Positions 35,464 through 63,645 of a DNA stretch of 64,000 nucleotides are shown here, one piece after another; position 1 is the first letter of the stretch, and each line of letters opens with the position of its first letter. The stretch is from Spirochaetota bacterium (GTDB lineage Bacteria > Spirochaetota > Spirochaetia > Treponematales > UBA12059), in NCBI GenBank assembly GCA_029547205.1, contig JAKPPT010000092.1, positions 24,626-88,625 of the forward strand. The letters are read 5' to 3'. The notes under the pieces are model-generated. The model made no database searches. It was given only the letters and a program-made list of their open reading frames with translations, and was not told where the DNA came from. The translations under genes and the position numbers were made by a program.

Positions 35464-37398
35464 CTAGTTTTGCTCTAAAAAATGTTCACGGATAAAAGCA
35501 GCATATGCTGGCAACAACATAAGTTCTTCATGTGTACCAAAGCCGACTACCTTTCCTCTATCCAAGAACAGTATTTTGTCTACATACTGCAGCGTAGAGA
35601 GCCGGTGTGATACAATAATAAATGTCAGATTCTGTGCAAACGCATTGAGTTCATTCATGAGACGCTCTTCGTTTGCTGCATCAAGACTCGCTGTAATATC
35701 ATCAAAAACCATAAGCTCTGGTTTCCTGGCTATTGCGCGAGCTATAGCCATCCGCTGTTTTTGTCCACCAGAAAGACTTAAGCCTCGCTGTCCCACAACG
35801 GTAAGTTCTCTATCGGTAAAGTTAGCGACTTCATCGCTCATCTGGGATATACGTAAGGCTTGATTGAATACCGTGTCGTTCGGTTCATCAATAAAAAAAT
35901 CTATATTTTCCTTAAGCGTTCCAGAAAACAAAAGAGCTTCCTGCGGGACATACCCTATTTTTTTTGCATATGTTTCTGTATCGATTGCATCTAGCGGTAC
36001 GCCATTTATTTTTACCATACCTGAATCTGGAGGCAGCAAGCCGAGCAATACTTTAATGAGCGTCGATTTACCTGAGCCTACTGGACCAATAACCCCAAGT
36101 CGTTCACCCTTTGTTACTCTAAAACTTACCCCATCGAGCGCTTTTTCTACACGCCCCGGATAAGTGAACGATACTTCATTAAAATCGATTGTAGCTATAT
36201 CTATTGCTATTGTTTTCTCCTGAGGTGCGATACCTGGCACCGATACTCCGCCCTGCACCTGGATACCTGGCACCGGAACACTGCCCTCTAGCGGTACGTT
36301 GCCCTGCACCTGGATACCTGGCACCGATACGCCGCCCTGCACATGGATACCTGGCACCGGGTCCTTTTCCGAAGCGCTTTTTCCTGGTACCGGAAAGCTC
36401 GCCATCTCTTCCAGCCTATCAATATTTACAAAAGCTTTTTTGCCATATACGAAGAGCTGTGGTATATCCAGAATTGGATAAATGAGCATCATGAGGTATG
36501 TATAGAACGCATAAAACGTTCCGATGCTTATTTTTCCTCTCACCGCCATTAAGCCGCCGGCAAATACAATACCTACTTGAGCAACGAGGTCAATGTACTG
36601 ATAGATAAGGTGCAGAATCACATCGAGTTTTGCTGCAGTCATTTCGGTTTTCCAGCGTTTTTGCAACACCTCATTAAAAAACCTTCGATATTTATCCTCG
36701 CAGGCATACGCTTTGATAATTCGCACACCCGAAAAGCTCATTTCAAGCTGTTCATTGACCTCACTCACAGCTTTTTCGTTTTTCCTGTAAACATCATATA
36801 CCTTATCAGATGTTACCCAGAAGACTGCCAGCATGAGCGGCAAGGGAATGAGCGAAAAAAGCGTCAGCTTTGGACTAATGAGCATCATTGCAATGAGACA
36901 AAACAGCACTTTACTGATTGATTCCACTGCGCGAAAAATTCCTGAACACAAAAACCACGACAGCTTTGGAAAATCATAGAGATCGCTCGTCAGCCGTGTA
37001 ACAATATCACCCGTAGCAAATTCTGAAAAAAACTTATAATTCTTTTCAAGAATTTTCTTAAAAAATTTCATTCGGAGCAAATGTTCAAAAACAGAGTTTG
37101 TCATGCCACGTATTGCAGGAAAAAATGAGGCAATAAAACCACCAAATCCCACTGCAATTAAAAGCATTAAGAGTCTATCTATTTCCAACATCGGGTCGGT
37201 TGTGCCAGGATGCTCCAAAAGCCGTTGGATAGTATCAAGCAACAATTTAGAAATATATGGAAGCAACACCGCCACCGCACTCGAAATTAATGTGAGTACA
37301 AATAATAGTGCTACAAGTCCTTTTTTCTCACTCCAGAGTTTTCTAATCCAGGCAATATGATTAATGTTCAGCTGTTTGTAGTGTATTGTATCTGACAT
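35464..37398 (-). CDS. ABC exporter, fused permease/ATPase (MsbA-type), with repeat-derived linker insert
   Basis: Six-TM domain, then GPVGSGKST, LSGGQKQR and LMVFDD. ATG 37398 is preceded by GGAGGAGGAG. The linker carries VPGIHVQGGVSVPGIQVQG... repeats. Confidence 0.9.
   Translation of the reverse strand: MSDTIHYKQLNINHIAWIRKLWSEKKGLVALLFVLTLISSAVAVLLPYISKLLLDTIQRLLEHPGTTDPMLEIDRLLMLLIAVGFGGFIASFFPAIRGMTNSVFEHLLRMKFFKKILEKNYKFFSEFATGDIVTRLTSDLYDFPKLSWFLCSGIFRAVESISKVLFCLIAMMLISPKLTLFSLIPLPLMLAVFWVTSDKVYDVYRKNEKAVSEVNEQLEMSFSGVRIIKAYACEDKYRRFFNEVLQKRWKTEMTAAKLDVILHLIYQYIDLVAQVGIVFAGGLMAVRGKISIGTFYAFYTYLMMLIYPILDIPQLFVYGKKAFVNIDRLEEMASFPVPGKSASEKDPVPGIHVQGGVSVPGIQVQGNVPLEGSVPVPGIQVQGGVSVPGIAPQEKTIAIDIATIDFNEVSFTYPGRVEKALDGVSFRVTKGERLGVIGPVGSGKSTLIKVLLGLLPPDSGMVKINGVPLDAIDTETYAKKIGYVPQEALLFSGTLKENIDFFIDEPNDTVFNQALRISQMSDEVANFTDRELTVVGQRGLSLSGGQKQRMAIARAIARKPELMVFDDITASLDAANEERLMNELNAFAQNLTFIIVSHRLSTLQYVDKILFLDRGKVVGFGTHEELMLLPAYAAFIREHFLEQN
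36229..36393. repeat. In-CDS copies of GATACCTGGCACC (4 exact, 1 degenerate)
   Basis: Copies start at 36229, 36262, 36313 and 36346. Spacings are 33, 51 and 33 nt, all multiples of 3. Confidence 0.9.
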
Positions 37399-37421
37399 AG
37401 TCTCCTCCTCCCCTATAAAGC

Positions 37422-39215
37422 TCACGTTGCCTCATCAAGTTCTGCATCTGCAGAAAGATCAGGGAATTGCAGACGGACCAGTTCTTCATACTCAGAATAC
37501 TCTGCAAGCAACTCATGATGCTTTCCTCGTGCTGCTATTCTGCCATTTTTGAAAAAAAGAATTTCATCAGCAGTAAGTATTGAAGAAAGCCTGTGCGCCA
37601 CAATGATAGCCGTTCTACCTTTAAGAAGATCTTTCATGCTCCGTTGAATTTTCTTTTCTGTAACTACATCAACACTTGCGGTTGCTTCATCCATAATGAT
37701 AATATCCGCATTAAAAACAACCGCTCGTGCAAATGAAATGAGCTGCTTTTCACCCATCGATAGATTGCCACCTCGTTCTGCAAGTTCAGTGTACGCACCA
37801 TGAGGTAGCCGCCGAACAAAATCATCAGCATGAACCGTTTCCAATGCTTTGAAAACATCGAGTTCGGTAAACTTATCATTATATACGCGTACATTTTCAA
37901 GGACTGTCCCCGGGAATAAATATATATCCTGCAACACAAGTCCAATATGTTTCCGCCATTCATGTAAATCAAGTGATTCCAATCGTACGCCATCAACAAG
38001 AATCTCACCACTCGTATATGGGTAAAACCTGCAGAGGAGGCTTACAGTTGTTGTTTTACCGGAACCAGAAGGACCAACAAGTGCAATGGTCTGTCCCTTT
38101 TTTACAGTAAATGAGACATGATCAAGCACCGGTTCGCCTTCTTTATAAGCAAAGGAAACATCACGGAACTCAATTGCATGCTTAAATTCAGGTTTGTTTG
38201 TAGGCGTTGCCACTGCTTCTTCAGGTTCAAGGCTCATAATCGAAAAAATACGTTCCATTGCAACGCGAGCCTGCTGAATACTCCGTACATTTTCCCCAAT
38301 TGCAAACAAAGGTTCAAACAACCGCATCCCATATTCAATGAAAACCAAGAGTGTCCCTACGGTTAAAACTCCTTTAAAGATTTGCGGCGCTGTTAATTTA
38401 ATGATGAGTGTAAGAAACAGCGGCCCAGCTAAAAATTGCAGCCCGCCCATAAAGATATACTCGATAAGACCAGCCCGAATCTCGATATCACGTTTTTCTT
38501 TACTTACTTTTTCTAGCTTGGAAACAGCCTTCTCTGTTTTTTTAAACACCTGGAGAACTTCTATACCCTGCACAAACTCTGTCACCACAGCACACACTTC
38601 TGCATACTTTTTTCTCGCTTTTTCATAAAGTGGCCTCAATTTATCAAAAACAAGTAAAAATGCAGCGAGTAAAAACGGTATCGGAATAAAAATAATGCCA
38701 GCAAGTTTTGCATCAATAGTAATGAAAACAATAAACATTCCAATAAAATAGATAATATTGGTGATGAGCATGATTGCAGTTTCGCTAAAAAGCTGTTTAA
38801 CCCGCTCAGTATCATTTTCCACACGAGCCATAAGCTCGCCAACCTGATGCTTATCAAAATATGCAACAGGTAGAGTAACCATGTGTGCAAACAGATCTGA
38901 TTTTATATTTGTCACAACATTTAGTCCCAGACGAACCATAAGCATGCTTTCGAAGTATGTGATAACACCCATAAAAATCACGAGAGCAAAATAGAGAAAC
39001 GCATACTGCAGCATGAGACTAACATCTTTTTGTGGAATAGCCTTATCGATAATTGCCCGGAGAATGAGCGGACCTGCCAGTCTAGAAGCAGTCACCGCCA
39101 GGAGTGCTAGCAAACCCAGAGCAAACAGAAACCAATACGGCTTGAAATATGAAAAAAATCGCTTGAACACCAGCCTCTTGCTGATATTTGTGTTTTGAAC
39201 TTGTGCTTCTGACAT
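37422..39215 (-). CDS. ABC exporter, fused permease/ATPase (MsbA-type)
   Basis: GPSGSGKTT, LSMGEKQL and IIIMDEATA. I prefer ATG 39215 (MSEAQVQNT, preceded by GGAGA). The track's N-terminal 59 aa are read through repeat DNA. Confidence 0.85.
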   Translation of the reverse strand: MSEAQVQNTNISKRLVFKRFFSYFKPYWFLFALGLLALLAVTASRLAGPLILRAIIDKAIPQKDVSLMLQYAFLYFALVIFMGVITYFESMLMVRLGLNVVTNIKSDLFAHMVTLPVAYFDKHQVGELMARVENDTERVKQLFSETAIMLITNIIYFIGMFIVFITIDAKLAGIIFIPIPFLLAAFLLVFDKLRPLYEKARKKYAEVCAVVTEFVQGIEVLQVFKKTEKAVSKLEKVSKEKRDIEIRAGLIEYIFMGGLQFLAGPLFLTLIIKLTAPQIFKGVLTVGTLLVFIEYGMRLFEPLFAIGENVRSIQQARVAMERIFSIMSLEPEEAVATPTNKPEFKHAIEFRDVSFAYKEGEPVLDHVSFTVKKGQTIALVGPSGSGKTTTVSLLCRFYPYTSGEILVDGVRLESLDLHEWRKHIGLVLQDIYLFPGTVLENVRVYNDKFTELDVFKALETVHADDFVRRLPHGAYTELAERGGNLSMGEKQLISFARAVVFNADIIIMDEATASVDVVTEKKIQRSMKDLLKGRTAIIVAHRLSSILTADEILFFKNGRIAARGKHHELLAEYSEYEELVRLQFPDLSADAELDEAT

Positions 39216-42631: not shown

Positions 42632-44086
42632 ATGAATAACGATCAGCAACAAAACATTTCTACTCCAAGTCAAACTATACTCAAACACAACAAATTCTGG
42701 CTTACAGTAGAAGGCGCTGCATCATCTGTATATCTCATTTTAACACAGGGTGCTCTTTTTACTGCTATTGCGATCTATTTCAAACTTACGACATTCTGGC
42801 TTTCTGTTACCACTGCATTTCCACTTGTGTTCCAGGTATTCCAGCTTATTGCTCCAACCATTATTAAACGGTCAAAAAACAGAGTAAGGCTGATGATTAT
42901 TTTCAATGCTGGCCGATTCATCTGGTTTATTCCGCTTGCAACTTCGCTCTTTGGCTTTTCATCTGCCTTAGAATTCATTGTGATTTTTGCAGTGAGCCAG
43001 CTCGCAAACGCTCTTGCTGGCAATGTGTGGGTGGGATTAAGCCGGGACCTCATTCCAGAACACGAACGCGGAAAATTTCTTGGGAGAAGAAATGTTGCAA
43101 TCAGCATTACCACAATGATTTCGACATATATCTATACTGCTATTCTCGATATACTCAGCAAACCTTTATCCATCATTATAACTATACTCATTGGCATGAT
43201 TGCTACAATCATTTCAATCATTGCCACGTTCCCAATTCGAGATATCAGTCTCCAGGAAATCAGCCAACAAAGCACAGGAAACCTGGCACCAGGAACAACA
43301 TTCGAAGAAAAATCGGCTGGAAACCTGGCACCAGGAACAAATAAACAAAAAACAGATTCTATAAAATCAAACTTGGTTTATTTATTTAGCTACAACAAGC
43401 AGTTGCTCCAGGATAGCAACATCAAACGATTTGTAATTGCAATGTTCGCGTGGAACTTTATTCTTCAACTAACTGCTCCGTTTTTTGCATATCACCAGAT
43501 CACCAATCTTTCTATGTCGATGCGATTGATCGGAATTACTTCCATCCTTACGAGTCTTCTTTCCATAATTTTTTACAGGATTTGGGGTGTTTTAGGTGAT
43601 AAACTTGGCCATAAATCAGTATTGGTGACAGGTATCAATATCGTTAGCCTTATCCCTATGCTATGGTTCTTTATGGGAAAACCGCTTTGGCCATACATGA
43701 TGGGTGTTGATGTACTCTTAACCGGACTTGGATGGTCAGCTATCGATCTTGGCATTTTAACCTTTGGAATGGAAATCGGTGGTAAAAACTCCAGTGCATG
43801 CTTTGCTCTCGCTAATGCAGGAGCGGGCATCAGCGGACTCGCTGGAGCTGTAGTAGGAGGCTTCCTGGGACAAAAACTTAAGCCAATAAACCTGACACTC
43901 TGGTCTTTCGAAATCAATGGTCTTCAATTTTTATTTCTTGTTGGTGGACTTTTACGGTTTTTAGGTCTTGCTCTCTTCAAAAAAGTACAGGCAGCTAACT
44001 ATGCAAAACCAGGTGTCATGGTTACGAATGTGCTTTCAATTATTGCACGACGCTTTGCAATCCGTCCCGCTGAACTTGATGAGTAA
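42632..44086 (+). CDS. MFS transporter with repeat-derived central-loop insert
   Basis: 484 aa with multiple TM helices. The central loop contains GNLAPGT twice. Confidence 0.7.
   Translation: MNNDQQQNISTPSQTILKHNKFWLTVEGAASSVYLILTQGALFTAIAIYFKLTTFWLSVTTAFPLVFQVFQLIAPTIIKRSKNRVRLMIIFNAGRFIWFIPLATSLFGFSSALEFIVIFAVSQLANALAGNVWVGLSRDLIPEHERGKFLGRRNVAISITTMISTYIYTAILDILSKPLSIIITILIGMIATIISIIATFPIRDISLQEISQQSTGNLAPGTTFEEKSAGNLAPGTNKQKTDSIKSNLVYLFSYNKQLLQDSNIKRFVIAMFAWNFILQLTAPFFAYHQITNLSMSMRLIGITSILTSLLSIIFYRIWGVLGDKLGHKSVLVTGINIVSLIPMLWFFMGKPLWPYMMGVDVLLTGLGWSAIDLGILTFGMEIGGKNSSACFALANAGAGISGLAGAVVGGFLGQKLKPINLTLWSFEINGLQFLFLVGGLLRFLGLALFKKVQAANYAKPGVMVTNVLSIIARRFAIRPAELDE
43277..43340. repeat. 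Two in-CDS copies of GGAAACCTGGCACCAGGAACAA
   Basis: Identical 22-mers at 43277 and 43319, 42 nt apart. They contain the perfect palindrome CCTGGCACCAGG. Confidence 0.9.
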
Positions 44087-49476: not shown

Positions 49477-49727
49477 GAAACCTGGCACCGCAATCTATCG
49501 ATACCTGGCACTGCAAAGTTCAAATCAGTCCAAAGGGAACCCTGACACCGCTTGCACAGCCAGAACGCGCCCGCTGACTGAAACATGGGGAAACCTGGCA
49601 CCGCAGACACTTTCCGCAGGCACTTTAGGAAACCAAGGGCTCGCTTTTGATACCTGGCACCTAACTGGCTAATGGCTCATGGCTTGTTATACCTGGCACC
49701 TAACTGGCTACTGGCTCATGGCTTGTT
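49477..49727. repeat. Intergenic repeat cluster A (~6 copies, CCTGGCACC orientation)
   Basis: GAAACCTGGCACCGC appears twice and GATACCTGGCACTGC once. A 39-bp unit, ATACCTGGCACCTAACTGGCTA(A/C)TGGCTCATGGCTTGTT, appears twice. Confidence 0.9.
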
Positions 49728-50700: not shown

Positions 50701-52563
50701 TTATTCCTCCGTCAATCGAGTTCCCCTGAATACCTTTTCAACTATTTGCGCAGGACTTTCAGTTGTACCAGAATCTTCTATCTCATGAGATTCTTGACTA
50801 TGCTCGGTTGAATTTTGCACAACATATGCATGTATTTGAATAACTCGATTAAACACTTTTTGTAAAATAGGATTGATTACCGAACTTTCTGCATTAATTT
50901 TATCTGCCTCAAAATTTGAAACACAGGATACTTCTAACCTGTCACCCTTTATCGACCAATCTTCTGTTCTGGAAAGAATCGCATTAAGCATCAAATTTTG
51001 CTTACCCAGTGCAGTAATTACCCTCTCCTTTTCAGCTATTGCAGTATCAGTAGCAGAATCTGACTGTTCAGAAATATAACCACTGGAATCTACACTTTTG
51101 CCGCGAGAAACCGCGATTGAAACTGCGCCGATGCCTGGTTTAACTGCACTGGTGCCAGGTTTCCCATCACCGATGCCAGGTTTAGTTGCGCTAGCAGTGC
51201 TAACTGTACTGGTACCAGGTTTTGAATCGACTGCTGATGCACCTCGGCTACTACCCACCATGTTGGCCTCGCTGGCCAGTTCAACGGTGCCAGGTTTAGT
51301 TGCGCTGGAAACTGCGCTGGTGCCAGGTTTCCCATCAGGTTTATTTGATTTATCCACTGAAGAAGCTTGAGAACTCAATGAGATTAGTTTTTCTGCAATT
51401 CCACTTGCGTTTTGAGTATTCCCTTCACTAAGAGCATGTTTCAAATTGGTTAAGATTTCAAAAATCTCAGAACGTGAAATAAGCGCTCGTATTTCACAGA
51501 GCATTACCAATGCAAGTTCTATTTCATATCGGGGGTTAACGCTGTACCGCATGTTTCTATAGATATCAAGAAGCACAGCAAGCATCCGTTCCAGGTGTCG
51601 TGTTTCGAGCGCTGACACTTGTTCCGGCACTGATTCTTTTGAAAACCCTAAAAGTTCCTGTTTCTCGACACCAGCTTTTATAAAAAGGAGCGTACGAACA
51701 TATTGAATAGTATCAACTAAGAGCTGCTCAATTGAAACACCTGAAGATACAATTGATTCAACAAGTTCGATTGTTTTAGCCTTATCTCCTTGTGCTACCG
51801 TGCTTATCAGCATACCAATTCGTTCAGAACCGACAATACCTAGTTTATCCTGAATTACCGACAGCCTGATATGTCCCTCAGAAAATGAAGCCACTTGATC
51901 AAACATGGTATACGCATCGCGGAGAGAACCAGTTGCCTCTCGCGCTATCCACATGAGCGCATCATCATCAGCCACAATACCTAAATCCTGCGCTGCCGAT
52001 GCAAGCCTTTCCTTAATAACAGCAAGCGGAATCAATCTAAAAACAAATTGCTGACACCGGCTGCGGATGGTAGCTGGTACCTTATGCAGTTCAGTCGTTG
52101 CAAATATAAAAACAATATATGGCGGAGGTTCTTCGATAGTTTTCAACAGTGCATTAAAGGCACTGTTAGAGAGCATGTGTACTTCATCAATAATGTAGAT
52201 TTTATATTTAGAGAAGTTAGGCGGGAAAAGCACCTCATCTTTAATTTGACGTACATTATCAACTGACGTGTTGGACGCACCATCAATTTCAATAACATCC
52301 AATGACGCACCTTTGGTGATAGCATGACACGAATTGCATACCCCGCATGGTTCTGCGGTTGGCCCTCGTTCACAATTGAGAGATTTTGCAAGTATTCGTG
52401 CTGTACTTGTTTTACCGCAACCTCGAGGACCAGAGAAAAGATATGCATGCGCTATCCTTCCCGATTCTATTGAAGCCTTGAGCGTAATCGAAACAAAATC
52501 CTGTCCCGCCAGCTCATCAAAATTCTGAGGCCGCTTGCGGTTTGCTGTCACTTCATACGCCAT
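50701..52563 (-). CDS. dnaX: DNA polymerase III subunit gamma/tau, with repeat-derived insert
   Basis: GPRGCGKTS, zinc module CERGPTAEPCGVCNSC, and DEVHML. The variable region carries KPGT repeats. Confidence 0.93.
   Translation of the reverse strand: MAYEVTANRKRPQNFDELAGQDFVSITLKASIESGRIAHAYLFSGPRGCGKTSTARILAKSLNCERGPTAEPCGVCNSCHAITKGASLDVIEIDGASNTSVDNVRQIKDEVLFPPNFSKYKIYIIDEVHMLSNSAFNALLKTIEEPPPYIVFIFATTELHKVPATIRSRCQQFVFRLIPLAVIKERLASAAQDLGIVADDDALMWIAREATGSLRDAYTMFDQVASFSEGHIRLSVIQDKLGIVGSERIGMLISTVAQGDKAKTIELVESIVSSGVSIEQLLVDTIQYVRTLLFIKAGVEKQELLGFSKESVPEQVSALETRHLERMLAVLLDIYRNMRYSVNPRYEIELALVMLCEIRALISRSEIFEILTNLKHALSEGNTQNASGIAEKLISLSSQASSVDKSNKPDGKPGTSAVSSATKPGTVELASEANMVGSSRGASAVDSKPGTSTVSTASATKPGIGDGKPGTSAVKPGIGAVSIAVSRGKSVDSSGYISEQSDSATDTAIAEKERVITALGKQNLMLNAILSRTEDWSIKGDRLEVSCVSNFEADKINAESSVINPILQKVFNRVIQIHAYVVQNSTEHSQESHEIEDSGTTESPAQIVEKVFRGTRLTEE
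51130..51331. repeat. Six in-CDS motif copies inside dnaX
   Basis: GATGCCTGGTTTA 51130, GGTGCCAGGTTTC 51151, GATGCCAGGTTTA 51172, GGTACCAGGTTTT 51211, GGTGCCAGGTTTA 51286, GGTGCCAGGTTTC 51319. Confidence 0.9.
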
Positions 52564-52579
52564 GCGTTTAGCATATCAT

Positions 52580-53070
52580 GGTGCCAGGTTTATAGTAAAC
52601 TAGGCAACAGGTTATTGTTATTTTTGTTTTTTTGGTACCAGGTATCAGATTTTGTTTGCTGCGCCAAGCCATTGGCGAAAACCTTCGGTGCCAGGAAAAC
52701 CTTCGGTGCCAGGTATCTAATAGCTGAATGTTTCATGAAAACCATTGGTGCCAGGTAATACATGGCCAAGTCTTTGAGAAGATTTTAGGTGTCAAGTTTC
52801 CCTAGCATATAGGTTTATGATAACATTTTCCCAGCATGCAAATGCACATGGCCAAGTATGCGGTGCCAGGTTTCTGATAGTTAAGTATACGGTGCCAGGT
52901 TTCTGATAGCTACCAGGTTTCTGATAGCTATAGCTAAGTATAGCTAAGTATGCGGTGCCAGGTTTCTGATAGCTAAAATATTGGATTTATGACACGTTTT
53001 ATTGACTACACGTAATCCGACAAGCAGTCCGGTGCCAGGTATCTCTAGATACGGTGCCAGGTATCTCTAG
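52580..53070. repeat. Intergenic repeat cluster B (~12 copies, GGTGCCAGG orientation)
   Basis: Begins 17 nt upstream of the dnaX ATG. Includes local tandems such as CGGTGCCAGGTTTCTGATAGCTA and CGGTGCCAGGTATCTCTAGATA (x2). Confidence 0.9.
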
Positions 53071-53159: not shown

Positions 53160-53292
53160 GTGGGTTCCTGCAACCATAAGGTCAGGCTTGGCATGGCACA
53201 AGATCATTCTGCTTACCGTTGCTTCCTTCCGGACCTGGCGGGGTTAGGCAGCGAACCTTTGCATGGAGCCTGACCATATTGTTGCAGGAAAA
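53160..53292 (-). ncRNA. ffs: Signal recognition particle RNA (small/4.5S type)
   Basis: The minus strand reads ...CCAGGUCCGGAAGGAAGCAACGGUAAGCAG..., matching the conserved domain IV core. The flanking arms UUCCUGCAAC..GGUCAGGCU and AGCCUGACC..GUUGCAGGAA pair into one long hairpin. Classic position upstream of dnaX. Confidence 0.8.
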
Positions 53293-53360
53293 TAGTACCG
53301 CCCATTTTGATATTAGTAGTCTTGCTATCAGTTATTAGCGGCTATTGATATTTTAAAATA

Positions 53361-53448
53361 CGGAGAGAGAGGGATTTGAACCCTCGGTGCCCTTTAGGAG
53401 CACACACGACTTCCAATCGTGCACCTTCGGCCGCTCGGTCATCTCTCC
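53361..53448 (-). tRNA. tRNA-Ser (anticodon GGA)
   Basis: Minus strand: GGAGAGA acceptor stem, anticodon stem CACGA/TCGTG with loop TTGGAAG, long variable arm, and T-arm GGTTCAAATCC. CCA is not encoded. Confidence 0.88.
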
Positions 53449-53630
53449 AAAATCAGTCTTGATAATAACAAAGCAAGCCACTTTTGGCAAGCCAATGAGC
53501 ATTAAAACAAGCCATTAGATCAAAAAAGCGTGAATCTTACCGAAGTTGAAACAATATCTAAAATTTACTAAAGATTTTGGTCATTGAAATGACCACTCAT
53601 AAAAGGTTTTAATGCAAAGATAAAAGATAA

Positions 53631-54173
53631 TTATGTTGCAATAACTGAACTAAAGTCATAGTTTTCTTGAGAAAATTTTTCATATAGATTTTTAATTTCA
53701 TCGCTTATCCAATTTAAAAATATTTTAAAGCCCTTTTTAAAAAATAACAAACCACTCCAAAACCACTCGTCTGGCCTTTTTACCATTTTTGCTTTCACAG
53801 GATTTAAAATTATATATTTCAAAACACGTTCTACATCCTGTATTCTCATCAACGGCTCTGAAAAATATCTACCAGCCCAAAAATGTCCTACTAAATCGTT
53901 AATTGCATTAAATTTCTTTGCAAACGTTACTAAAAGCCTTTGCATTATCTTAGGAAGCTCCTTACAATCCCTTGGTTTAATAAGCAGATGAATATGATTA
54001 TCCATTAAAGTAAAACCTTCTACATTAAACTGATACTCTTTTTGCAACTTTTTTAATATTTTCATAAACATCTTTTTTAGACCAGAACGTTGCAGAAAGT
54101 AAGTTTGATAATTCGTTCGCGCTGTAATATGATACGTTGCCCCTGGAATTAGCAATCTCGGTTTTCTTGGCAT
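53631..54173 (-). CDS. rayT: REP-associated tyrosine transposase (RAYT; IS200/IS605-like Y1 HUH family)
   Basis: 180 aa. YHITARTN, HUH motif DNHIHLLIKP, GHFWAGRYFSEP, and the catalytic-Tyr motif KYIILNPVKAKMV. Single gene with no IS ends or tnpB. Visibly more AT-rich than its neighbours. Confidence 0.8.
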   Translation of the reverse strand: MPRKPRLLIPGATYHITARTNYQTYFLQRSGLKKMFMKILKKLQKEYQFNVEGFTLMDNHIHLLIKPRDCKELPKIMQRLLVTFAKKFNAINDLVGHFWAGRYFSEPLMRIQDVERVLKYIILNPVKAKMVKRPDEWFWSGLLFFKKGFKIFLNWISDEIKNLYEKFSQENYDFSSVIAT

Positions 54174-54307: not shown

Positions 54308-54469
54308 GAAACCTGACACCATAAATCCAGAAACCTGACACCATAATTTTTTAAGTTCTAGTTTTGGTGGCAGGTTTCTAATTTTCTACAAGAAGTGCGC
54401 TTATTGGTGCTTGTGAAGCATTTAGCTGTGATTCGTACCATGTTTCCATGTTTCTCGGTGCCAGGTTTC
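54308..54469. repeat. Repeat cluster C upstream of RAYT (2 copies in each orientation)
   Basis: GAAACCTGACACC at 54308 and 54330. GGTGGCAGGTTTC at 54366 and GGTGCCAGGTTTC at 54457. Confidence 0.85.
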
Positions 54470-55762: not shown

Positions 55763-55915
55763 GGTGCCAGGTATCAGGTATATCAAATATTGTCAGGTAT
55801 CAGGTATTTCAAATATTGTTATGTAATGATGTATTGTTGAGCAGCCAGCGAGTGCCAGGAATATTACCAAACTTATTTCCAGACTTATTTCAGCGGTGCC
55901 AGGTTTCGCCCCTGG
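55763..55915. repeat. Intergenic repeat cluster D
   Basis: CGGTGCCAGGTATCAGGTAT, GTCAGGTATCAGGTAT, GAGTGCCAGGAAT, and CGGTGCCAGGTTTCGCCCCTGG at 55894-55915. Confidence 0.85.
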
Positions 55916-56159: not shown

Positions 56160-57788
56160 ATGATTAAGCTATTTTTCCCGCTAAAACACCGCGAAAATCT
56201 CCCTATTGAATTCATTAAACGTGTACCTATACTCATCAACACAAATTTTATACTTATTCTTTATTTTGTGTTCGCTTCATTTACACGGTATCGAGCTGAC
56301 CCAGAAGCTACTCGTATATTTTTTATTGCAGTACTGGCTTCATGCTCCTCATTTGTAATATCGCTGATGCTCATCCGATTCAAGCATTATATCATTGCAT
56401 CGACCTTCTCAATGTTGGGGATTTTTTTAAACAGTCTCTGGATTGGGATTTTGCTACCGCTCACTAACTACATGGATTTATATCGATTTTCAGTCTATAT
56501 TATCGCTGCAAGCACGGTAAATATCTTACTTTCCTTCAGGCGGCTTCAAATATGGCTCTATAGCATTACAACTTTTGCAGCATTCGTGTGTGTTTCGCTG
56601 TTTTACTATGCGCCTCGTTTTGGCGGTTTTACGGGTGAAATTAGAACGATATTTACCACGCTTTCAATGTTATACATTGCCGTTACAATTGTTTTCTTCA
56701 TTATCAACAAAATCTCTACAGATCTACTGACCGTAGCTAATGTGGAAATGCAAAAAAACAAAGCAAAGGCTGATGCTTTAAACGAGCTCATTCGCAATAC
56801 TAAAAACACCATGAAAGTCGGCGCTGATCTTGTGGAATATGCAGGACAGAGTACCGCTAGCGCTAATCAAATTAAAAACGAACTCCTCTCGATTGCAGAC
56901 TCAGCTCGAAAACTTTCCACCGATGCAACATGTGCCGATGAAACAAACCGTGGCATCGTCGAGTTTGCCCAAAAAATGCAGGAAGCAGTAGACAATCAGA
57001 ACTCATTTCTCCAGGAAACAAGCAGTGCTGTTACAGAAATTATGACTACAATCCAGAACATAGCGCAGCTTGCTGAGCAAAAAAAGTCGATAATGAATGC
57101 GGTTGTCAATAAAATTGAAGCACAGGGCAATGAAATAAAAAAACTTACCGAGGGCTTTGAAGCAATTCAGGAATCTTCTCGCAGTGTACTGTCAGTCATA
57201 TCGAGCATTCTCGATATTTCAGAGAAAACAAACATGCTCGCAATGAACGCCTCGATCGAGGCTGCACATGCCGGTGCAGCAGGTAAAGGCTTTGCAGTCA
57301 TTTCAGGAGAAATTCGCAAACTCTCTTCAGAAACACAGGTAAGCACGCAACTCATCAGTCAGGCACTCTCTCGCAATCAGGAAGTCATCGATACCGCATC
57401 AAACTTGATACATCGGTATACCGCAAGCCTTAAAGATGTCATTGAGGACGTTCGCGATACTTTTAATTCATTTGAAGAAATTATTGCCGGCTTGAGCGAA
57501 ATCAATATAGGGGCAAAAGAACTAACCACCGCAACAGGCAACATGGTCAACATATCAGCAGAGACCCGAGAAACCATAAAAGGCGTAGCCACGCAGATTT
57601 CGGACAGCTCCGCAAGCATTGAACACATCTCATCATTTGCATGCGCACTCGACGAGCGCATCAACAAACTCAAAGAGGACTTTGCCCGCATCGAAGCCAT
57701 TATCCAGCAAATCCGAAACATCGGCGATCTCAACATCGAGCAAATCAAACGCCTCGAGACCGAACTCGATACCATTACCGGCAGGTAA
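56160..57788 (+). CDS. Methyl-accepting chemotaxis protein with multi-TM N-terminal domain
   Basis: 542 aa with the highly conserved signalling hairpin [35 protein letters not shown]. Confidence 0.88.
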
Positions 57789-57797
57789 TCTTAATCA

Positions 57798-59221
57798 AAT
57801 TAGCAACTCACTAGCGCCTCGCAGAAACCAAAACCTGGCACCTTTCTCCCCATTCTCTCAGATCCAACGAAACATGGCACCCTTTGGCCCTCCGCAACCG
57901 GGGACCCTTTATTGAGAAACCTGACACCGTTCTCCCCATTCTCTCAGACCCAACGAAACATGGCACCGTTCTCGCAGACCTCGCCGAAGAGCTGCGCCTA
58001 TCAAACCGAAACCTGGCACCATTCCCGCAAACCTAAAACCTGGAACCTGGAAACCTGGCACCGATCTCGCAGTTCTCAAAACCTGGAAACCTGGCACCGT
58101 TCTCGCAAACCTAAAACCTGGAACCTGGAAACCTGGCACCGATCTCGCAGTCCTCGCCGAAGAGCTGCGCCCATCAAACCGAAACCTGGCACCGTTCTCG
58201 CAGACCTCGCCTGGAAACCTGGCACCTTTCTCCCCATTCTCTCAGACCCAACGAAACCTGACACCTTTCTCGCAGTCCTCGCCGATTAAGAGCCGCGCCC
58301 ATCAAACCGAAACCTGAGGAAACCAACCTGGAAACCTGGCGCCCTTTATTGGGAAACCTGGCACCGTTCTCGTAGTCCCGATTCGAAACCTGGCACCCTT
58401 TGGCCCTCTGCAAATTAGCAACTCACTAGCGCCTCGCAGAAACCAAAACCTGGAAACCTGGAACCAAATGAAACATGGAAAGCAACCTGGAACCCGGAAA
58501 CCTGGAAACCAACCTGGAACCCGGAAACCTGGCACCAAATACTTTGAGACGCCCACCGCAACATGGGACCCCTTATTGAGAAACCTGGCACCTTTCTCCC
58601 CGTTCTCTCAGACCCAACGAAACCTGGCACCCTTTGGCCCTCTGCAACCTGGGACCCGGAAACCTGGAAACCTGGCGCCCTTTATTGGGAAACCTGGCAC
58701 CGTTCTCGTAGTCCCGATTCGAAACCTGGCACCATTCCCGCAGACATCGCCGATTAAGAGCTGCGCCCATCAAACCGAAACCTGGCACCCTTTGGCCCTC
58801 CGCAACCTGGCGCCCTTTATTGAGAAACCTGGCACCGTTCTCGCAGACATCGCCGATTAAGAGCTGCGCCTATCAAACCGAAACCTGACACCATGGCACT
58901 TGATTTCTTTCAAACCGAAACCTGGCACCGTTCTCGCAGTCCCGATTCGAAAACCTGGCACCGTTCTCGCAGTCCCGATTCGAAAACCTGGCACCGTTCT
59001 CGCAGTCCTCGCCGAAGAGCTGCACCCATCAAACCGAAACATGGAACCTGGCACCCTTTGGCCCTCCGCAACCTGGGACCCCTTATTGAGAAACCTGGCA
59101 CCGTTCTCGCAGTCCCGATTCGAAACCTGACACCATGGCACTTGATTTCTTTCAAACCGAAACCTGGCACCACGGCACTTCAGGCACTTATTTCTTAAGG
59201 CACCATGGCACTTGATTTCTT
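57798..59221. repeat. ~1.4 kb single-orientation array of GAAACCTGGCACC modules (about 30-35 copies by hand count)
   Basis: Every module starts with the core and carries one of about four tail types. Includes a 33-bp tandem (x3) at ~58915-59013. A higher-order repeat, AAATTAGCAACTCACTAGCGCCTCGCAGAAACCAAAACCTGG, occurs at 57798 and 58413. Confidence 0.95.
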
Positions 59222-59349
59222 AAAAAAATCTATTATTCTTTATTTGTGGAGTTTGTTTTGCTGTTTGTATTTGACAACTTGATTATGATAGTTCTATCAT
59301 ATATAGTAGATATAAAATATCAAACAATATCATTTGCAAGAGGGGTACC

Positions 59350-59901
59350 ATGACAAATAACGATATTGTCCCTGGTTTCGATGATGAAAAAGATGACAGC
59401 CTCAAAATACGTCTTCAAAAAGTCGATGAAGTGGAAAACTGTATCGCTATGTATCTTACAGGTTATATCGATACATACAATTCTATTTTCTTCCAGAAAC
59501 GGATCAATAAAGCTATTGAAGCAGGCTTTAATAAGCTCATTTTTAACTGTGCAGCTTTAAACTACGTTTCATCAACCGGTATTGGATCTTTCACAGCATT
59601 TCTTAAATCGGTTAAACCTCGCGGTGGAGATATAGTACTATTCGAAATTCAACCAAAAGTGTACGAAGTATTCCAACTCCTGGGCTTTTCACAATTTTTT
59701 AATATCCGAGACAGCCTTGATGATGCTATTCTCTTTTTCAAGCAAGGCACCACGGTATCAACACAATCTGTATTCCCTAAAATTTTTAACTGCCCTATCT
59801 GCAATAAAAAGCTCAAAGCTGCAAAACCCGGCAGATTCCGCTGTTCGGAATGTAAAACAATTCTTGCAATTGATAATCAGGGACAGGTTTTCCTGGGTTA
59901 A
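59350..59901 (+). CDS. STAS-domain (anti-sigma-factor antagonist-like) protein with C-terminal zinc ribbon
   Basis: 183 aa. NYVSSTGIGSF resembles the SpoIIAA phospho-Ser loop. C-terminal CPIC...CSEC. Confidence 0.65.
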   Translation: MTNNDIVPGFDDEKDDSLKIRLQKVDEVENCIAMYLTGYIDTYNSIFFQKRINKAIEAGFNKLIFNCAALNYVSSTGIGSFTAFLKSVKPRGGDIVLFEIQPKVYEVFQLLGFSQFFNIRDSLDDAILFFKQGTTVSTQSVFPKIFNCPICNKKLKAAKPGRFRCSECKTILAIDNQGQVFLG

Positions 59902-60340: not shown

Positions 60341-61042
60341 ATGGGAATATTTGATCGTCTGAAAACCTTAATTTCTTCAAATATCAATGACTTGATTTCC
60401 AAAGCAGAGAATCCAGAAAAAATGCTTAACCAGCTCATTCTCGATATGAATCAGCAAATGGTTGAATCAAAAAAAGCTGTAGCAATGGCTATTGCTGATG
60501 AAAAACGGCTTGAGCGTGAAATGCTCGAACAAAAGCGCCAGGCAGAGGATTGGGAAAAGAAAGCCATGCTCGCAGTCAAAGCTGGCAGAGATGATCTTGC
60601 AAAAGAGGCACTGCTCAGAAAGGCTGAGGCAGAGAATTACTACAATCAACTCAAACCACAGTGGGAATCTCAACGAGCATCGGTTGAAAAACTCAAGGAG
60701 TCACTGCGAGAACTTCAAAACAAAATTGATGAAGCAAGCCGTAAGAAAAATATTCTTATTGCCCGAGCTAAACGAGCAGAAGCACAGGAAAAAATTCAAA
60801 AAACTATGGGCTCGCTTCAAAACAACAAAAGCGCTTTTGAAACATTTGACCGTATGGCCAAAAAAGTTGATGAAATGGAAGCTAGAATTGAGGCTCAAGC
60901 TGAACTAGCTGATCTTTCAAGTTCTGCATCACTAGAAAAAGAATTTGCTAAGCTAGGCAATTCTTCTGCTTCAGCAGACCTGTTGCTCGAAGAACTCAAA
61001 CAAAAAATGCAGCAGGAAGGCCAGACCGGCACTCAAAATTAA
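60341..61042 (+). CDS. pspA: PspA/IM30 family protein
   Basis: MGIFDRLKTLISSNINDLISKAENPEKMLNQLILDM is the family's N-terminal signature. The rest is a long coiled coil. Confidence 0.88.
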   Translation: MGIFDRLKTLISSNINDLISKAENPEKMLNQLILDMNQQMVESKKAVAMAIADEKRLEREMLEQKRQAEDWEKKAMLAVKAGRDDLAKEALLRKAEAENYYNQLKPQWESQRASVEKLKESLRELQNKIDEASRKKNILIARAKRAEAQEKIQKTMGSLQNNKSAFETFDRMAKKVDEMEARIEAQAELADLSSSASLEKEFAKLGNSSASADLLLEELKQKMQQEGQTGTQN

Positions 61043-61162
61043 GCCCCGGTATTCTTCTTAGCACCGCAAGTAAATTACCTCATTAAAAATACGAGCCAAC
61101 AGCCATATGAGCCAACAGCCATGCCTTAATAAAATGCCCTAATAAAAATCTTGGAGCCGTTT

Positions 61163-61580
61163 GGTGCCAGGTTTCAAAATAGCCATTTGGTGCCAGGTTT
61201 CGTTCCAAGTGCAGATATAGAGAAAAACCGGTGCCAGGTATCGCTATAAATCCCAAAGTCTGTGACAAGCAAGAAGGCCGGTGCCAGGTTTCCCATTTGT
61301 GTCATTTGGAGGTGCCAGGTATCCCCACTGGTACCCTACAGCTTCAACAAAAGTTAGCAATGGAGCGATTGGTGCCAGGTATCCCCACTGGTACCCCACA
61401 GCTTCAACAAAAGTTAGCAATGGAGCGATTGGTGCCAGGTATCAGTATGGGATTGGTGCCAGGTATCGCTATACCAGGTTTCCCATTTGTGTCATTTGGA
61501 GGTGCCAGGTATCCCCACTGGTGCCCCACAGCTTCAACAAAAGTTAGCAATGGAGCGATTGGTGCCAGGTATCAGTATGG
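61163..61580. repeat. Intergenic repeat cluster F (~11 copies, GGTGCCAGG orientation) with 60-bp tandem units
   Basis: The 60-bp unit GGTGCCAGGTATCCCCACTGGTACCC(T/C)ACAGCTTCAACAAAAGTTAGCAATGGAGCGATT occurs at 61311, 61371 and 61501. Confidence 0.92.
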
Positions 61581-62868: not shown

Positions 62869-63645
62869 ATGAAATATCGGTGCCAGGTATCAAAAAAGGT
62901 TTTCCGTTTATCAAAACATGCAATCAAAAAATATTTGTGCATCCTTGCTATTTTTTTAACATCGTATTCCGTTTTTGCCTTTGATATTACTCATGCAGGC
63001 GGATCACTCGGTGTGCTCATCATCAATAATACGGTTCCCGAATCAGCACCGAACCCGGTTGTAAATACCATTGGTGGATTTGCCAATTTTACATTTACTT
63101 CGGTGCCAGGTTTCGCCCCTGGTTCTTCGGTGCCAGGTTTCGCCCCTGGTTTTTTCCTCTCAACAGCTCTCGACATACTCTGGCTCAATTATGAAAACCG
63201 AGACGGTATTGCTGTGCCTACAGAAACAGAAACTGGTAACGGCAATAACGTTTTTGTTATCGGTTTACTGCTCGATGTACCGTTAGGATATGTATTTTAT
63301 TTTGGACCGCCTGTTACCGAATCATTACCGCATCGATTTTCAGCTACCTTACTTGCAGGCACATCTTTTTTATTTCGTATCTGCATGAATGGTGATACAA
63401 CCGAAGCTTATGCAAGCGTGATGGAACAAAACCGCATTGCTGTTGCCCAGTACCTCTGGGGGAATGGTAGGTGGTTTTATCCAATGATAAGCGGGAAATT
63501 CGGTATTGTGCTTCAAGAAACGTTTACATTCACAGTAGGCGCAAAGTGGTACATCCCCATATTCAATCTTTGGACAACCGATGATAATTCATTTTTCAAT
63601 GCAAGTATGCTGGCAATTCAGCTTGCAATGCAAATTTCCCTGTAA
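62869..63645 (+). CDS. Hypothetical exported/OM protein with repeat-derived segments
   Basis: 258 aa with a hydrophobic N-terminus. Motif copies at codons 3-8 (YRCQVS) and in SVPGFAPGSSVPGFAPG. Confidence 0.5.
   Translation: MKYRCQVSKKVFRLSKHAIKKYLCILAIFLTSYSVFAFDITHAGGSLGVLIINNTVPESAPNPVVNTIGGFANFTFTSVPGFAPGSSVPGFAPGFFLSTALDILWLNYENRDGIAVPTETETGNGNNVFVIGLLLDVPLGYVFYFGPPVTESLPHRFSATLLAGTSFLFRICMNGDTTEAYASVMEQNRIAVAQYLWGNGRWFYPMISGKFGIVLQETFTFTVGAKWYIPIFNLWTTDDNSFFNASMLAIQLAMQISL
63099..63149. repeat. Two in-CDS copies of TTCGGTGCCAGGTTTCGCCCCTGG
   Basis: Copies at 63099-63122 and 63126-63149, 27 nt apart. Their 22-mer core is identical to the intergenic copy at 55894-55915. Confidence 0.9.

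Follow-up and report, generated by a model that had tools for sequence, protein, structure and literature searches.

MIRU-type variable-number tandem repeats (VNTRs) of mycobacteria are intergenic direct tandems of units tens of base pairs long that occur at many loci and vary in copy number between strains, and the dRS3/RS mosaics of Neisseria are kilobase-scale intergenic tracts that alternate between a short constant core and longer units of a few families, with most of the elements located in large clusters. Repetitive extragenic palindromes (REPs) and the bacterial interspersed mosaic elements (BIMEs) that contain them, as presented for Escherichia coli and Pseudomonas in parts of PMC3733652, are short, high-copy, and mainly extragenic; in a "REPtron" family members lie, inverted, on both sides of a single-copy REP-associated tyrosine transposase (RAYT) gene. 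The same parts of that source put on record large REP clusters that repeat their units in tandem with flanking DNA, in a discussion that also mentions dRS3 of Neisseria, as well as occasional intragenic REPs, notably in replication genes, and RAYT-like genes whose flanking inverted repeats are not REPs. The last of these, the "TIRYT" genes of "TIRtrons" (Di Nocera et al. 2013, PMC3733652), are surrounded by inverted repeats containing the motif GGGGWSAS, and some of these repeats are reported there as moderately abundant families in dimers or clusters. Heptamer families such as the cyanobacterial STRR, TAACTGA, and GGGNATC repeats have a scattered phylogenetic distribution and an unknown mechanism (PMC4679880, PMC4692102). 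Here we describe a repeat array in 64,000 nucleotides of DNA (the window; contig JAKPPT010000092.1, positions 24,626 to 88,625) from an uncultured Spirochaetia/Spirochaetales bacterium of anaerobic digesters. The array lies between an MCP gene and a STAS-PspA operon and is built from 40 copies of a short core, all on one strand.

Our preferred reading, to which we assign a probability of roughly 60%, is that the array is the largest local cluster of a lineage-specific, RAYT/"TIRYT"-associated, and non-palindromic repeat family, variable in length and without a dedicated role for the STAS/PspA operon. In architecture the array is, by description only, most similar to the neisserial dRS3/RS mosaics; dRS3, however, is a CGTC-type palindrome and a phage/IS110-type integration site with no sequence relation to the array. 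In behavior it is most similar to MIRU-type VNTRs, whose units differ in being 40-100 bp long and homogeneous at each locus, with neither a shared 13-nt core and free tails nor a link to a RAYT. Like the heptamer families it contains 7-8-nt tandems, and the core itself is two heptamers, but the sequence is a different one and most of the array consists of longer core-plus-tail modules rather than pure heptamers. The differences from REPtrons are the non-palindromic units without GTAG or CGTC, the single direction of all 40 units, and an invariant part of 13 nt with locus-specific tails, whereas the passages of PMC3733652 that describe TIRtrons contain no mention of 40-copy direct arrays, in-frame coding copies, or dialects. 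New here are the non-palindromic 13-nt core composed of two heptamers, the 40-copy mosaic in one orientation, the one-base dialects of sister species, and the in-frame spread into dnaX and transporter genes.

The array between the MCP and STAS genes

The core motif GAAACCTGGCACC was scanned with up to two mismatches allowed, and expectations were derived from dinucleotide shuffles; the window contains 95 matches compared with 1.0 expected. The MCP gene (542 aa, 56160-57788, + strand) is separated by 1561 bp from the STAS gene (59350-59901, +), which is followed by a CesT-like gene (PF22550, 59924-60310) and the PspA gene (60341-61042). Forty of the matches lie in this gap, every one on the + strand; 18 are perfect, 13 have a single mismatch, and the other 9 have two. 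The array that they form (57830-59171, +) is a succession of cores, GA[A/T]ACCTGGCACC, with a tail after each that belongs to one of a small set of recurring types; the cores are irregularly spaced (7-78 bp), and most of the array is made of modules of 22-56 bp. An earlier reading of the letters without database searches (the sequence-only reading) had proposed a unidirectional repeat array here, and the array, its coordinates, and its flanking genes all proved correct, as did the four tail types that it quoted, each of which recurs. Its core also stands, with the amendment that the variable base is the third one (GA[A/T]ACC). The perfect 33-bp tandem that it had noted, consisting of the core and tail 1, was located by Tandem Repeats Finder (TRF) at 58918-59008 (+; 2.8 copies, 100% identity), and TRF further identified 7-8-nt sub-arrays within the block at 58037-58062 and 58446-58532. 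A proposed higher-order duplication of ~615 bp was not supported, because the identity at offset 615 (64%) is not above that at other offsets (56-66%) and the resemblance amounts to one 43-bp exact duplicate plus ~110 bp of collinear modules. The 43-bp sequence is that directly following the MCP stop codon (57796-57838, +), and its second copy lies inside the array (58411-58453, +). The other end of the gap has likewise been copied inward: CACCATGGCACTTGATTTCTT, a native promoter-proximal piece of 26 bp that is partly conserved in relatives (59201-59226, +), recurs at 58889-58914 and 59131-59156, giving three copies in all. The modules were said to fill the whole gap, which is true of the array but not of the last ~130-150 bp (about 59222-59349), a module-free and unique sequence of promoter and 5'-leader.

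The array has a GC content of 52-56% compared with 33-45% in its flanks, and its + strand is C-rich and G-poor (35.8% C, 19.6% G). No inverted repeats were found in the MCP-STAS gap. Single modules fold no better than shuffled sequences (z from +0.45 to +2.1), and the two halves of the array fold worse than shuffles (z = +2.9 and +3.7), so the 20-40-bp imperfect palindrome or stem-loop of a REP is missing. The core contains neither GTAG nor CGTC, the former occurring only as a GCAG variant in two modules, and with 40 of 40 cores on the + strand there is no BIME-like alternation. A classical REP/BIME assignment was rejected on these three grounds, and the ideas of a REP hairpin, a terminator, or a structured RNA were dropped because the modules are less structured than shuffles. 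A single-orientation array of this size had been called unusual beside classic REP/BIME clusters; large tandem REP clusters with flanking DNA are documented in the sections of PMC3733652 cited above. A CRISPR array was also considered and discarded, as the spacing is irregular, the "spacers" are a few recurring tails, and there are no cas genes among the annotated neighbors.

Open reading frames (ORFs) of 101-130 aa run through the array at 57912-58289, 58468-58860, and 58893-59198, and two of them (130 and 101 aa) are called as genes in several public assemblies. Pfam searches with five array ORFs gave no match, and we regard these ORFs as most likely false gene calls. Rfam returned no match in the array, either at gathering thresholds (applied to the whole window) or at E≤1 (array), and elsewhere detected only an SRP RNA and a tRNA. 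The annotated ORFs are what favors a repetitive-protein gene, either decayed or unannotated, or alternatively a structured non-coding RNA; the probability of either seems to us negligible, given the empty Pfam and Rfam searches, module lengths that are not multiples of three, an array strand that folds worse than shuffles, 78- and 33-bp insertions or deletions (indels) unaccompanied by single-nucleotide polymorphisms (SNPs), and the absence of the region from a close relative.

A dispersed family with dialects and variable arrays

Cores are present in at least nine spacers of the window (at least eight besides the MCP-STAS gap) and in three genes, on both strands and with their own tails at each locus. 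The 13-mer GA[A/T]ACCTGGCACC and the purine after it are the sole conserved part, and the flanks are not conserved. Within the 64-kb window the family is therefore of high copy number, dispersed, and mainly extragenic, as REP families are, and the array is not the locus-specific oddity that the sequence-only reading had taken it for. The second-largest array (61163-61573, - strand) has ten cores with its own tail types in the spacer between the PspA gene and the next gene, and it is antisense to both. Further clusters lie in the spacer between recR and an ABC ATPase gene (49477-49700, +), in the divergent spacer upstream of a gene of 343 aa (55763-55907, -), and upstream of dnaX and next to the RAYT gene (see below), and three cores lie at or inside the 5' part of a 258-aa ORF (62879-63141, -). 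No orientation rule with respect to transcription was found (four clusters are sense and three antisense), nor any uniform strand bias between adjacent spacers; the lack of an orientation rule argues against an RNA-level function and against a simple insertion into the lagging strand only.

The coding copies are read in three different frames and lie in linker regions. In dnaX (50701-52563), cores at 51151-51331 (-) are in frame and encode KPGT... peptide repeats; the DnaX linker is 39 aa longer than that of a sister species, and a 7-aa (21-bp) unit of it is polymorphic between strains. Four cores (36229-36358, +) are antisense to an ABC-transporter gene (35464-37425), where VPGI repeats occupy a linker, and two in-frame cores (43278-43332, +) in an MFS-type transporter gene (42632-44086) give GNLAPGT repeats.

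The distribution is patchy. Positions 1-36000 contain ~3 weak matches compared with ~90 in the last 28 kb, or 0-2 cores per 4 kb over the first 36 kb and 13-38 per 4 kb thereafter, with 82 matches between 48 and 64 kb; the 6 kb beyond the window, available on the L001 contig, add two weak matches. This clumping bears on another explanation, in which the motif is a signal resembling a DNA-uptake sequence, or a protein-binding signal, that stays abundant through biased uptake, through biased conversion, or through selection for a nucleoid protein, with the arrays as a side effect. A short, non-palindromic, and strongly over-represented motif that occurs in coding DNA in three frames and differs between species, as known uptake sequences do, would fit such a signal. 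Known uptake sequences are nevertheless evenly spread and do not form 40-copy direct arrays, neither competence genes nor a candidate binding protein was seen in the window, and the relation of the core to RAYT flanks would be left unexplained; we consider this explanation highly improbable.

Syntenic loci in related species were reached by way of MCP orthologues. In the window (MCP 100%) the gap is 1561 bp and the dominant core is ACCTGGCACC. A sister species (L011; MCP 91%) has a gap of 508 bp and mainly ACCTGTCACC, with 21 copies in 20 kb versus 6 of ACCTGGCACC, the two cores differing by a single base (TGTCACC versus TGGCACC). In L090 (MCP 66%) the gap is 452 bp and holds five tandem 16-bp units with CACCTGGTACC, of which there are 17 copies in 12 kb, and in L089 (MCP 73%) it is 165 bp, the whole 8.5-kb locus being free of repeats. 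A non-syntenic contig of another Spirochaetota metagenome-assembled genome (MAG; L041) carries the core of the window followed by 16-nt tails, and no cores were found in three other Spirochaetales loci (60 kb, paralogous MCP loci of other species). By these comparisons the core family is confined to a narrow clade, with a core that changes concertedly between species, and the MCP-STAS gap has expanded either independently or progressively.

The STAS/CesT-like/PspA operon has a predicted sigma-70-type promoter of its own, TTGACA-18-TATCAT (59271-59300, +; 11 of 12 consensus positions), downstream of the array. This promoter and the leader after it are kept, nearly identical, in all four syntenic species, including the repeat-free L089, whatever the gap contains. 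Because of this promoter the array is, as judged from the sequences compared, dispensable for the operon. A structural or regulatory role, as the sequence-only reading had suggested, is thus unsupported: four related species keep the operon promoter while the gap ranges from 165 bp without repeats to 1561 bp. The array at this locus is instead an extreme member of a dispersed, probably RAYT-linked family and not a dedicated structural or regulatory device. The gene order MCP/STAS/CesT-like/PspA is itself kept in at least four related spirochaete species (the window, L011, L089, and L090), and it is unusual for a Psp operon to have PspA preceded by a STAS gene paired with a chaperone-like gene.

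The modules could also be viewed as tandem sigma-54 promoters or binding sites for the STAS/PspA operon, acting as multiple promoters, as a decoy that titrates the holoenzyme, or as a roadblock. Ten modules with TGGCACCG[TA]TCTCGCA fit TGGCAC-N5-TTGCW with one mismatch, keep GG-N10-GC, and point at the operon; the window has 16 matches compared with 3.1 expected, and a sigma-54 activator gene lies ~7 kb downstream. A -12 TCGC variant occurs in E. coli glnAp2, and enterobacterial PspA operons are sigma-54-dependent. The -12-like element is, however, a feature of a single amplified tail type rather than of the family, most cores elsewhere having none, and given the fixed TGGCAC of the core and the roughly 25 tail types of the window, chance would be expected to produce one such match. 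In the relatives GG-N10-GC is not kept upstream of the operon: their gaps lack it, their cores read TGTCAC or TGGTAC, and one relative is repeat-free, whereas the sigma-70-type promoter downstream of the array is retained. We conclude that the resemblance is probably due to chance and that sigma-54 sites are a very unlikely explanation.

A role in ending transcription was considered as well. No convincing intrinsic terminator was found after the MCP gene, where there is one weak terminator-like site, fewer than in shuffles. Rho entry sites are C-rich, G-poor, and unstructured RNA, and because a read-through transcript would have the same properties, the array may help to end MCP transcription; it would be at most a spacer and a possible Rho entry region. 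Such an effect cannot be the reason for the family, since other arrays are antisense to neighboring genes.

The STAS protein was found on 19 public contigs, all from short-read assemblies. The 1561-bp gap was assembled independently from another sample (L003), a 1639-bp haplotype is present in five independent assemblies (L002, L004, L007, L009, and L010), and one assembly has a 1606-bp haplotype. Whole modules account for every difference among the four gap haplotypes, apart from one that is set off solely by a 100-N assembly gap; all the remaining gap sequence is 100% identical. Since the gap and its haplotypes recur in independent assemblies, the array is probably not an assembly artefact, with the proviso that its exact length is soft: the 33-bp tandem has two units in L005 and three in the window, the L001 MAG has 100 N exactly at this tandem, which makes the copy number insecure in short-read data, and two contigs stop 429 bp upstream of STAS. 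Arrays of this kind thus break short-read assemblies, as contig ends and N-gaps at the MCP-STAS locus illustrate, and spawn false calls of 101-130-aa ORFs.

The 78-bp insertion of the second haplotype amounts to two modules and is located at 58127-58128 (+), where a 24-nt direct repeat, itself beginning with the core, flanks it. Two strains compared over 14.6 kb differ by 14 SNPs and three indels, and two of the three indels are core-flanked, namely the 78-bp one of the array and one of 21 bp that lies between two AAACCTGGCA repeats in dnaX. The sole indel not flanked by cores (16 bp, GAGCCAACAGCCATAT) is at position 61093, just 3' of the PspA stop codon. Strain-to-strain length variation, for which the sequence-only reading had proposed a test, is present in these short-read assemblies, with gaps of 1561, 1606, and 1639 bp that differ by whole modules, as in a VNTR. 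In situ amplification likewise gains support from the whole-module differences and from the flank sequence copied into the array interior. Whole-module indels and copied flanks fit the outcome predicted by slippage or unequal recombination between nearby cores, and since either process would copy local sequence, each locus would be expected to have its own tails.

The RAYT gene and its probable relation to the core

An intact RAYT gene encoding 180 aa (53631-54173, -) lies 3.6 kb from the array. The protein passes the NCBIfam model REP_Tyr_transpos (NF047646; 87 bits, cut-off 80), and its HUH motif (HIH) and catalytic Tyr align to those of E. coli TnpA-REP (PDB 4ER8), so that the window contains a Y1 transposase of the class found in REPtrons and TIRtrons. 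The core in its G-rich form, GGTGTCAGGTTTC, occurs twice on the coding strand of the gene, 135-169 nt upstream of the start (copies at 54308-54342), and the RAYT-proximal cores (54308-54469, both strands) include two more in the opposite direction; the core pair at 54329-54379 forms a hairpin (z = -4.3). Downstream of the gene, C-rich cores inverted relative to these copies lie at 566-1050 nt (52580-53065, -), upstream of dnaX and beyond a tRNA-Ser and an SRP RNA. The single-copy RAYT, the clusters that repeat units with flanking DNA, and the intragenic copies, notably in a replication gene, are all features shared with REPtrons as the cited parts of PMC3733652 present them. Inverted family members on both sides of the gene would recall a REPtron as well, but on the downstream side the tRNA-Ser and SRP RNA intervene. 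The SRP RNA (Rfam, 69 bits) and tRNA-Ser(GGA), at 53177-53275 (-) and 53360-53449 (-) between RAYT and dnaX, keep the same order in the sister species.

Cores are so common in the 15-kb neighborhood that proximity to the RAYT is by itself not significant, and other RAYT genes were therefore compared. A locus found by the core pattern alone (L075) encodes a RAYT only 26% identical to that of the window, with three copies of [AC]GT[GA]CCAGGTTG upstream and six of CAACCTGGCAC[CT] downstream; both the core and its polarity are as in the window, and the flanking is here clear-cut. Additional RAYT relatives were 27-39% identical to the window protein, and in seven of them inverted or tandem flanks contain GGGGTCAG, GGGGACAGGTTT, or similar sequences. 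The flank is GGGGTCAGACTTT in L095 (a perfect 28-bp inverted repeat), GGGGACAGGTTT in L098 (two copies upstream and inverted copies downstream), GGGGACGTTTCG in L099, AGGGTCAGGCCTT in L101, GGGGTCAGGCCT in L103, ATGGGGTCAG in L104 (three copies), and TAGGGACGGTT in L105 (two copies). The strict motif GG[GT]G[ACT][CG]AG is six-fold denser in oriented RAYT flanks than in the background. When reverse-complemented, the core (GGTGCCAGGTTTC) matches GGGGACAGGTTTA of L098 at 10 of 13 positions (11 of the first 12). By sequence, the motifs flanking these RAYT genes agree with the GGGGWSAS published for TIRYT genes in the relevant part of PMC3733652: the closest relatives have inverted or tandem GGGG[AT][CG]AG-type motifs, and GGTG[CT]CAGGTTTC, the core reverse complement, is a one-off variant of the TIRtron motif with the same polarity relative to the gene. 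These comparisons indicate that the core is likely the cognate end motif of the window RAYT. The viral-contig scan for RAYT relatives returned two loci only, and on one contig classed as viral in IMG/VR (L098) two RAYT-like genes lie in tandem (1-720 and 1980-2760); on either side of the second are GGGGACAGGTTT inverted repeats, which occupy the loops of short AGGAC/GTCCT hairpins.

We propose that the core 13-mer would be the recognition or end motif of this single-copy RAYT-type HUH tyrosine transposase, and that the transposase may have seeded core copies into spacers and tolerant coding linkers. Wherever two cores came to lie near each other, replication slippage or unequal recombination could duplicate or delete the intervening DNA, and nicking of single-stranded DNA at the cores by the RAYT may stimulate either process. 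The outcome would be unidirectional mosaics of core and local tail that behave as variable-number repeats, with the MCP-STAS gap as the site where the most copies have accumulated.

Several observations weigh against this proposal. The window RAYT is not tightly bracketed, as a TIRtron gene is, because the tRNA-Ser and SRP RNA genes separate it from the downstream cores, and its proximity to cores is uninformative, as noted. The strict flank motif occurs in only 4 of 10 non-spirochaete relatives, with variants in four and none in two. The first 36 kb of the 64-kb window have almost no cores, and all of the assemblies compared are short-read. The modules do not fold, whereas the Y1 transposases studied so far recognize hairpins. 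The RAYT of the sister species (L011, 10001-10543) is a pseudogene, split by an in-frame TGA into 101 and 72 aa, with the break seen in five contigs from different samples, and that species still has ~27 cores in 20 kb; maintenance of the cores thus needs no live RAYT.

How RAYTs spread their cognate repeats is unsettled, and this lineage offers a compact test case, with one intact RAYT and a 13-nt core that is not a hairpin. It adds a one-base core difference between sister species of which one has a dead RAYT, whole-module change between co-existing strains, and in-frame copies in the essential dnaX. If the RAYT-core relation is true, RAYT-associated repeats would reach beyond palindromes and would tie to widespread heptamer arrays.

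Heptamer arrays in other phyla

Paired-core scans, one of a genome collection and one of metagenomes, yielded 74 loci from many phyla (L015-L088). The genome-collection scan did not return the source species itself, and the metagenome scan returned one contig of it (L070, the same as L009), its other matches being heptamer arrays of soil and freshwater taxa. In a single pattern scan (ACCTGNN)n arrays were found in Acidobacteriota, Chloroflexota, Cyanobacteria, Bacteroidota, Planctomycetota, Myxococcota, Bdellovibrionota, and others, and GAAACCTGGCACC recurs across phyla within heptamer tandems (ACCTGGC ACCTGAA ACCTGAC ...), for example in L023, L034, L042 (Oscillochloris), L064, L076, and L088. 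In 59 of the 74 loci the core string lies within runs of at least four consecutive ACC[TC][GA]NN units, often with an inverted run nearby, and in 13 loci the runs are on both strands and form long hairpin arms. Literature string searches for the core and for heptamer arrays retrieved no relevant paper.

These arrays suit an explanation by a plain minisatellite or long simple-sequence repeat, in which polymerase slippage created a heptamer or octamer microsatellite (AACCTGG, ACCTGNN) that later decayed and was amplified anew, the RAYT being a bystander. The 13-mer is indeed two heptamers, the TRF sub-arrays of 7-8 nt have that period, the endpoints of the strain indels are direct repeats, and among the long simple-sequence repeats of bacteria heptamers are the most frequent kind (Mrazek 2007, summarised in a portion of PMC4679880). 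Slippage alone, however, leaves unexplained why more than 12 separate loci, on both strands and also within genes, share an identical 13-mer while their tails are unrelated; it accounts neither for the concerted one-base change of the core between sister species nor for the same motif beside RAYT genes that are only 26-39% identical. We consider this explanation unlikely.

A more tentative extension of our preferred reading, the RAYT-associated repeat family, is possible but doubtful. A broad RAYT-like ("TIRYT") clade might use an end motif that is short and not palindromic, GG-N-G-N-CAGG(TTT), of which AAACCTGNCNCC is the reverse complement, and this motif might be the source of the (ACCTGNN)n heptamer microsatellites, of which the spirochaete array would be a hypertrophied instance. 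The 7-nt period would follow because the RAYT motif starts and ends with GG and head-to-tail copies overlap. The expected period suggests that the cross-phylum heptamer arrays may be arrays of the RAYT motif; a search of the 74 loci with a RAYT hidden Markov model detected a RAYT in L075 only. The origin of the heptamers that dominate bacterial long simple-sequence repeats is unknown, and we regard this link as the most valuable lead, since, if true, it would provide a general and undescribed route for HUH transposases to build direct-repeat arrays and an origin for bacterial heptamer repeats. In four of the loci, from Oscillochloris/Chloroflexales MAGs (L023, L028, L029, and L034), a GC-rich hairpin (GGGCTTCCAGCC...GGCTGGAAGCCC) is followed by (GAAACCTGGCACCT)n and by the end GAAACCTTGTCT, a recurrent element that resembles a dispersed composite repeat or else a mobile-element end.

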